From: Escherichia coli
GTDB taxonomy: Bacteria > Pseudomonadota > Gammaproteobacteria > Enterobacterales > Enterobacteriaceae
Assembly (NCBI RefSeq): GCF_013122565.1
Contig: NZ_CP053258.1
DNA length: 64,000 nucleotides
Direction: 5' to 3' (one strand)
In this document: in pieces, positions 59,003-59,134 of the stretch
Position numbering within the stretch: position 1 is the first letter of the stretch
How the letters are laid out: the number at the start of each line of letters is the position of its first letter
Position numbers and translations under genes: made by a program
The notes under the pieces: model-generated
Database searches by the model: none
Told to the model about the DNA's origin: nothing
What the model saw: only the letters and a program-made list of their open reading frames with translations

Positions 59003-59134
59003 ATGAAAAAGAAACCGGTTGCGCAGTTGGAGCGTCAGCATTCACTGCTGGAAAATCCATGTGCTTATGGGTTGTTATCGCAGTTCCAGGCTGCGATAGT
59101 CGTTAACTGTTTTACACTTAATAAAATAATTTGA
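59003..59134 (+). CDS. yqgB: Small protein YqgB (43 aa) immediately upstream of speA
   Basis: ATG 59003; translation [43 protein letters not shown]; below ORF-track size cutoff. Confidence 0.65.

Follow-up and report, generated by a model that had tools for sequence, protein, structure and literature searches.

Immediately 5′ of speA, which encodes the biosynthetic arginine decarboxylase, Escherichia coli carries a short open reading frame (ORF), yqgB, and the locus raises the question of what this frame has been kept for: the small protein that it specifies, or the passage of ribosomes towards the speA start codon. We addressed this question in a window of 64,000 nucleotides of E. coli DNA (NCBI RefSeq contig NZ_CP053258.1), to which all positions refer (Table 1). 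The 43-codon ORF lies precisely where the original prediction, made without database searches, had put it (ATG at 59003–59005, TGA at 59132–59134, 132 nt in all) and has the translation quoted then. As also claimed, it ends 8 bp before speA, the spacer occupying 59135–59142 and the speA ATG 59143–59145, a distance that is true for the start of the long form of speA, the one that RefSeq annotates. At this size the ORF falls under the 60-aa cutoff of the ORF track, as had been said, and the ORF list has the same frame as 48 aa from GTG 58988. The proposed identity as YqgB proved correct: RefSeq holds a feature at exactly the same coordinates, and the peptide matches both NCBIfam NF033844 (90.1 bits, cutoff 35, residues 1–40 of 40) and Pfam PF11036 ('Virulence promoting factor'; 113.3 bits, cutoff 24, residues 1–43 of 43).

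Of 5426 complete E. coli genomes, 5425 are matched by a query of 801 nt around the ORF, with an identity of at least 99% in 5414; the annotated features of the matched region are yqgD, yqgG, yqgB ('acid stress response protein YqgB', WP_001297406.1) and speA. The gene order in RefSeq is metK - yqgD - yqgG - yqgB - speA, with yqgB immediately 5′ of speA on the same strand; in the O157:H7 record yqgB stands at the equivalent coordinates, 8 nt 5′ of a speA of 658 codons. In the window galP and metK are on the minus strand, and speA, an ORF of 243 aa and speB on the plus strand. The arrangement of yqgB followed by speA is kept in 78/78 related species, and a profile search returned 134 YqgB proteins, all in genera of the Enterobacteriaceae. 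In full-length match, length and position before speA the present copy agrees with the PF11036/NF033844 family, of which it is the type member. Since the ORF list shows many spurious ORFs of similar size near yqgB, a 43-codon open frame is common by chance in this neighbourhood and is by itself no evidence of a gene. yqgB is nevertheless a gene already known: it has long been annotated, has Pfam and NCBIfam models and has been detected by experiment; the ORF itself adds nothing new, and what is new here is a comparative reinterpretation of its role.

The family collection also holds rare truncated YqgB variants of 33–41 aa (P0006, P0007, P0010, P0013, P0118), single E. coli or Salmonella records with 1–3 member sequences each, which may reflect either errors of assembly or alleles that have naturally lost the frame. 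The locus L057 ('Chryseobacterium sp. 18061') and the YqgB protein P0104 ('Vagococcus sp. WN89Y') have a typical Enterobacteriaceae sequence and are probably contaminated or mislabelled records.

Table 1. Features of the yqgB–speA region, in positions of the window.
Feature	Position	Strand	Remark
speA 5′ leader as cloned by Adams et al. (2021)	58645..59142	+	from the published transcription start
yqgB ORF, 43 codons + TGA	59003..59134	+	ATG invariant in all species examined
Predicted helix in yqgB, codons 7–8 with 20–21	59023-59026 / 59061-59064	+	RNAalifold, pair count
Small predicted hairpin UCAGC/GCUGG, codons Q12-H13 and L15-L16	59035-59039 / 59047-59051	+	variable codon 14 in the loop
Predicted hairpin, GGUUGUUAUCGC ('YGLLS' codons) with GCGAUAG..UAACU ('AIVVN' codons)	59070-59081 / 59093-59108	+	
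Predicted pairing of UACACU ('CFTL' codons) with GGUGUA in speA	59113-59118 / 59191-59196	+	closes the start-site structure
UGAGG	59132-59136	+	yqgB stop (59132-59134) overlaps speA Shine-Dalgarno GAGG (59133-59136), at the helix foot
Predicted invariant 16-bp helix, GUUCGCU-AUG-UCUGACGA with UCGUCAGCNGGCGAAC (speA codons 11–16)	59136-59153 / 59173-59188	+	
speA, biosynthetic arginine decarboxylase, long form of 658 aa (SpeA-74)	59143..61119	+	
Rho-dependent Term-seq 3′ end, K-12 coordinate 3085854, flagged 'uORF'	~59200	+	mapped by sequence
Second speA start (SpeA-70), Shine-Dalgarno GGAGG 59211-59215, AUG 59221-59223	59211..59223	+	

The acid phenotype associated with yqgB is said to have its primary source in the work of Hobbs et al. 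from 2010. Ribosome profiling had been named as a check on the original prediction, and published data on translation bear the prediction out: yqgB is among the experimentally validated small ORFs, tagged YqgB protein is cited there as accumulating, and yqgB-speA is listed as an uncharacterised potential upstream ORF (uORF) pair (Adams et al., 2021). The yqgB start codon was detected in vitro by INRI-seq, whereas Ribo-RET had not detected it in vivo. With retapamulin present, both methods show a peak of ribosomes at the first start of speA, and as no translation through yqgB is possible under these conditions, any coupling between the two frames is not obligatory. In a screen for arrest peptides, overexpression of YqgB fell into the heat-shock (aggregation) group and not among the cold-shock-like arrest signatures. 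According to one paper purified YqgB binds ranitidine, and a paper of 2026 treats the protein as a drug target; acid-sensitivity and colistin phenotypes of deletions have been attributed to YqgB. In the 2026 paper deletion of yqgB in Salmonella lowered speA and speB mRNA, arginine decarboxylase and spermidine, and the deletion phenotypes were reversed by putrescine or spermidine; trans-complementation of the deletion is not reported in it.

We compared 80 Enterobacteriaceae loci from different species, anchored on the SpeA N-terminus, 78 of which had enough upstream sequence; counts of 79 comprise these 78 species and the window, and the tally of 80 stops adds L001, an E. coli duplicate of the window. 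A yqgB-like ORF with an invariant ATG is present in 78/78 species, at lengths of 38 to 91 codons. Conservation of the frame across the family, the other check that had been proposed, came out positive: the yqgB frame is open in 79/79 sequences, while the other two frames carry stops in 79/79. Among 73 distinct sequences none has an in-frame stop, as against 11.25 ± 2.4 under a column-shuffle null whose minimum in 2000 shuffles was 4. The open frame, the invariant ATG and the literature thus agree in indicating that the ORF is translated.

The end of the frame is equally constrained, for in all 80 loci the stop is only a few nucleotides away from the speA start: it ends at −8 (before the speA ATG) in 58 loci, at +8 (after its first base) in 22, and nowhere else. 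The '+8' class (22/80 loci, 21 species) has the tail '...EVRYV*' and its stop inside speA codons 2–3 (UCUGAC). Parsimony on a neighbour-joining tree of speA requires no fewer than 13 switches between −8 and +8 and no fewer than 7 shifts in length class; no species uses the third reading frame out of yqgB. Sister species such as L044/L045 and L015/L013 differ by a 1-nt indel in the tail. Insertions of 21–129 nt (7–43 codons), at least five of them independent and all just 5′ of the TACACT block, leave the frame open. The fixed position of the stop is partly automatic, because both stops are by-products of other conserved elements, the Shine-Dalgarno (SD) sequence in the one case and speA codons 2–3 in the other.

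Several details of these loci deserve mention in their own right. The insertions in the 3′ part of yqgB (L014, L034, L035, L037, L041, L049, L051, L055, L061, L079, L081) sit between AACTGTTTTA and TACACTT, have inverted ends (TATACCC...GGGTATA) and look like added stem-loops. In L038 and L039 (Raoultella ornithinolytica and R. planticola) the UACACU block is deleted and YqgB has 38 aa, and L038 is the only one of 67 aligned sequences with an altered speA partner, GGUGUA having become GGCGUA. The third frame from the yqgB region would stop at UGA 59222–59224, overlapping the second speA start, so that each of the three frames, including the unused one, ends beside one of the two speA start codons. 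Outgroup proteins from the SpeA search were mostly fragments from assemblies with a split speA, and the error-prone L084, L086, L089 and L090 were excluded. As weak outgroup evidence, Dickeya (L082) has the start-site hairpin together with a non-homologous ORF that likewise ends at +8, and a metagenomic relative (L085) has a divergent yqgB-like ORF of 47 codons with its end at +8. In L083 and L088 the ORF has 23 codons and ends at −55, and the long hairpin is lacking; as their speA is split, these assemblies may be degraded or error-prone, and we give them little weight.

The substitution pattern points away from selection on the peptide. Pooled Nei-Gojobori estimates gave an in-frame pN/pS of 0.91 for yqgB versus 0.08 for speA codons 101–300, and in the two other frames 0.85 and 0.67 for yqgB versus 3.75 and 3.57 for the same speA codons. 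pN was 0.213 in yqgB and 0.038 in speA codons 101–300, and pS was only 0.233 in yqgB compared with 0.499. Mean column conservation at codon positions 1, 2 and 3 of yqgB was 0.837, 0.833 and 0.850, without codon periodicity. The blocks TATGGGTTGTTATCG and GCGATAGTNGTYAACTGTTTTACA are almost invariant, four-fold degenerate sites included; radical changes occur at codons 9–11, 14, 17–20 and 27–30, that is at ~40% of positions, and the C-terminal tail varies in sequence and length, its last 4–9 residues being hypervariable. AlphaFold2, run on a 35-sequence alignment, returned one low-confidence helix (pLDDT 66.5, pTM 0.27). Judged by these alignments, the YqgB peptide is without amino-acid-level selection overall. 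The residues that are invariant (M1, K4, P5, A7, L24, L25, S26, I32, V33) fall on invariant nucleotides of predicted RNA helices, four-fold sites included, which suggests that the amino-acid sequence is largely a by-product of RNA structure, although the conserved residues could face a double constraint, from the RNA and from the peptide.

The helices themselves were predicted by RNAalifold on 67 sequences and evaluated by a pair count on the specified structure, in which 98.5% of cells were paired versus 29–55% when the partners were slid. Every conserved 'peptide motif' of YqgB sits on a helix strand by both analyses. In other words, what the PF11036/NF033844 family registers as conserved columns would, on the present reading, be strands of RNA helices. 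The helix of codons 7–8 with 20–21 (4 bp) is the sole one with compensatory changes: in 13 sequences an AU pair has become GC, and where CAG (Q8) is replaced by CGG (R8), codon 20 has C instead of U in its third position. The majority of helix pairs show no variation at all and hence give no covariation evidence, so that covariation speaks for this one 4-bp helix. In the hairpin spanning 59070–59108 (MFE −14.4 kcal/mol, z = −2.8) the stem is nearly invariant, third positions included, and the variable codons 27–30 form the tip. The 16-bp helix contains the first speA AUG and the edge of its SD; the predicted MFE is −21.2 kcal/mol, a stability of the start-site hairpin that is unremarkable for its composition (z = −1.4). 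The block UGAGGUUCGCUAUGUCUGA around UGAGG is invariant in 67/67 sequences. Mean unpaired probability over 67 species was 0.62 in the yqgB start region, 0.25 across the first SD and AUG of speA (SD1-AUG1) and 0.35 across the second (SD2-AUG2). No SD was found 5′ of the yqgB ATG, where most genera have a conserved GTGTTTTACAATGATATG. Constraint extends into speA, in which four-fold sites are 0.87 conserved in codons 10–35 versus 0.67 further on, and an independent study found that synonymous sites near the 5′ end of speA show enhanced conservation (Meydan, 2019). A scan of 58200–59500 on either strand against Rfam 15 gave no match at E ≤ 1.

Both speA starts are in use, giving SpeA-74 and SpeA-70 (Meydan, 2019), and both isoforms are found in Salmonella too. 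The primers of Adams et al. (2021) map to 58645 (forward) and 59142 (reverse end), which puts yqgG as well as yqgB inside a leader of ~500 nt; across genera this leader is a mosaic of blocks that are 0.9–0.99 conserved. Rho-dependent termination has been measured in it, with a Rho-dependent 3′ end 57 nt into speA (Adams et al., 2021), and the Term-seq end listed in Table 1 falls just 3′ of the start-site structure. Our scan for promoters and terminators gave only weak promoter-like sites and a single terminator-like hairpin (58925–58944), located 5′ of yqgB and after yqgG.

The upstream half of the leader has features of its own. yqgG, a second leader ORF of 47 codons (58766–58909) behind a strong SD (GGAGG, 58749–58753), has its ATG kept in 78/79 aligned sequences, and its conserved part is a nucleotide block conserved at 0.94–0.96. 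Starting 16 nt past its stop, the terminator-like hairpin GCUCUUG-UAAAAA-CAAGAGU is followed by UUUUCUCGUGG (58925–58957 in all), is flanked by blocks conserved at 0.98–0.99 and shows compensatory changes across genera, from CUCUUG/CAAGAG to CUCCUG/CAGGAG. By its appearance in the sequence, yqgG with this hairpin looks like an attenuator, of which we found no description in the literature on the speA leader. Just ahead of the yqgG start, at ~58759, lies a 3′ end known from published Term-seq data. Antisense to yqgG, on the minus strand, lies yqgC (71 aa, Pfam PF17430, 58652–58867), which is reported to show no ribosome density and to give no detectable tagged protein, and which has no PGAP annotation in the RefSeq record examined; this 'family' is probably an antisense shadow of the conserved leader. 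Further blocks, of 0.8–0.97 cross-genus identity, occur before the leader and at its 5′ end (58448–58522 and 58688–58702) and are partly inside the annotated yqgD ORF, which has no Pfam or NCBIfam match. In E. coli yqgG and yqgB share a frame without a stop between the yqgG stop and the yqgB ATG; a read-through from one into the other was considered and dropped because of indels and stops there in other genera. Beyond speA, the 243-aa ORF between speA and speB (61265–61996) has a lipoprotein-type signal (MKKWKVRSALIALVVLLAGC...) and is a 'lipoprotein' in the O157:H7 RefSeq record.

We consider it an even call that yqgB is a translated cis-acting leader ORF of the speA mRNA, in which the terminating ribosome opens the speA start site. 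As the literature and the coordinates show, speA is transcribed with a leader of ~500 nt that includes yqgG and yqgB. By the literature and the conservation of the frame, ribosomes start on the AUG of yqgB, which is unstructured and lacks an SD, pass through the three conserved hairpins and, as we find, stop at a UGA whose end is placed 8 nt ahead of the A of the first speA AUG or 8 nt past it. According to the prediction, the invariant 16-bp helix with speA codons 11–16 encloses this AUG together with the 3′ edge of the SD. From the known reach of the mRNA channel, a ribosome on either stop should already have unwound the 5′ strand of this helix, so that SD1 and AUG1 would be exposed for re-initiation or for binding of a fresh 30S subunit, that is for translational coupling. 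The same ribosome transit may shield the leader from the Rho-dependent termination measured there. The second speA start (AUG 59221, with its strong GGAGG) is outside the helix, and the ratio of isoforms could for this reason depend on translation of yqgB, which, to speculate, may set SpeA-74:SpeA-70.

The conservation data are best explained by selection on translation of the yqgB frame, on its end point and on the RNA structure that is crossed, and peptide selection fails to account for them. The lowered speA mRNA and enzyme in the yqgB deletion are consistent with a dependence of speA on yqgB in cis, and support it indirectly; the effect could also reflect loss of RNA structure or stability, and not loss of translation.

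Two other accounts give the peptide a part. In one, which we judge unlikely, YqgB is a trans-acting stress peptide of 43 residues, co-transcribed with speA and acting via protein or membrane interactions, as its present annotation, 'acid stress response protein', would have it. RefSeq, NCBIfam and Pfam all treat YqgB as a protein family, it figures among the small proteins validated by experiment, its overexpression perturbs proteostasis, and acid-sensitivity and colistin phenotypes of the deletion have been attributed to it. The nine invariant residues named above would fit such a peptide as well, but they coincide with invariant helix nucleotides down to four-fold sites, and the remainder behaves unlike a protein: pN/pS is no better in frame than out of frame, codon periodicity is lacking, ~40% of positions are radically changed, the C-terminus varies in length and tolerates insertions of 7–43 residues, and the predicted structure is of low confidence. 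The deletion phenotypes, moreover, track lower speA and speB and are rescued by polyamines, with no trans-complementation reported in the 2026 paper. Somewhat less likely still, in our estimate, is the other account, in which YqgB is a metabolite-sensing nascent peptide of the SpeFL, MdtU or TnaC type whose stalled ribosome controls both the access of Rho and initiation on speA. Polyamine, agmatine and arginine are candidate signals, mdtU-mdtJI responds to spermidine, and yqgB-speA has been grouped with candidate uORFs near a Rho-dependent 3′ end (Adams et al., 2021). The overlap of the yqgB stop with the speA SD, too, means that a ribosome paused at termination would occlude the SD. A sequence-dependent stall at this point is, however, argued against by the hypervariability of the last 4–9 residues and by the insertions of 7–43 codons that may separate AIVVNCF from the stop; AIVVNCFTL is a conserved block, but peptide-level selection is missing overall, no conserved motif was found in the exit-tunnel residues at the stall site, and the arrest screen gave a heat-shock response and not the cold-shock-like signature. 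A classical amino-acid attenuator was also considered for yqgB and rejected, as there is no codon run and no terminator-like site after yqgB.

If peptide selection is set aside, the RNA might suffice. The region could be a structured leader or a processed 5′ fragment in which translation of the open frame is incidental, as the nucleotide-level conservation, the abundant short 5′ transcripts with a 3′ end just past the structure, and the weak in vivo initiation signal at yqgB would all allow. We hold this to be very unlikely, because it leaves unaccounted for the frame itself: no in-frame stop in 73 distinct sequences where about 11 are expected, survival of the frame through independent insertions, avoidance of the third frame, and an invariant ATG. 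The yqgB start codon is also used in vitro, and YqgB protein is detectable.

The reading of yqgB as a cis-acting leader ORF can be extended, and we do so tentatively, at somewhat less than even confidence. The 'YqgB protein family' would be mostly the translated shadow of conserved RNA; yqgB, yqgG and the attenuator-like hairpin would together form a two-uORF speA leader of ~500 nt, in which coupling through yqgB sets the output of speA and the ratio SpeA-74:SpeA-70, possibly according to polyamine or arginine status, and the deletion phenotypes would be those of speA loss in cis. Published yqgB-deletion phenotypes may then be cis effects on speA: if so, acid-stress, virulence and colistin-sensitisation phenotypes would come down to reduced arginine decarboxylase and polyamine synthesis, and the targeting of YqgB protein with drugs would be misdirected. 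Coupling in cis would also explain the long-known and unexplained post-transcriptional control of speA, and its production as two isoforms. The truncated variants of 33–41 aa would serve as natural tests of this model. More generally, yqgB is a cautionary case: what unites a curated 'protein family' can be constraint at the level of RNA.

Akin to secM-secA, the ermC and cat leaders and classical translational coupling, yqgB-speA has a short ORF that stops a few nucleotides away from the start of the next gene, and the SD or AUG of that gene would lie in a helix, predicted in the present case, that the ribosome has to melt. secM-secA and the ermC and cat leaders need a specific arrest sequence or an inducing drug, whereas yqgB has no conserved C-terminal arrest motif. 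In eukaryotes a uORF (MAGDIS) precedes the polyamine biosynthetic gene for AdoMetDC, and termination events on it control initiation downstream; belonging to another domain of life and relying on a peptide-specific mechanism, it offers an analogy only. Although the C-terminus of MdtU is reported to be conserved and important (Adams et al., 2021) and that of YqgB is its least conserved part, yqgB resembles speFL-speF, which responds to ornithine, and mdtU-mdtJI, which responds to spermidine, in that a polyamine gene carries a small ORF in its leader, with a Rho-dependent 3′ end nearby and conservation across the enterobacteria.
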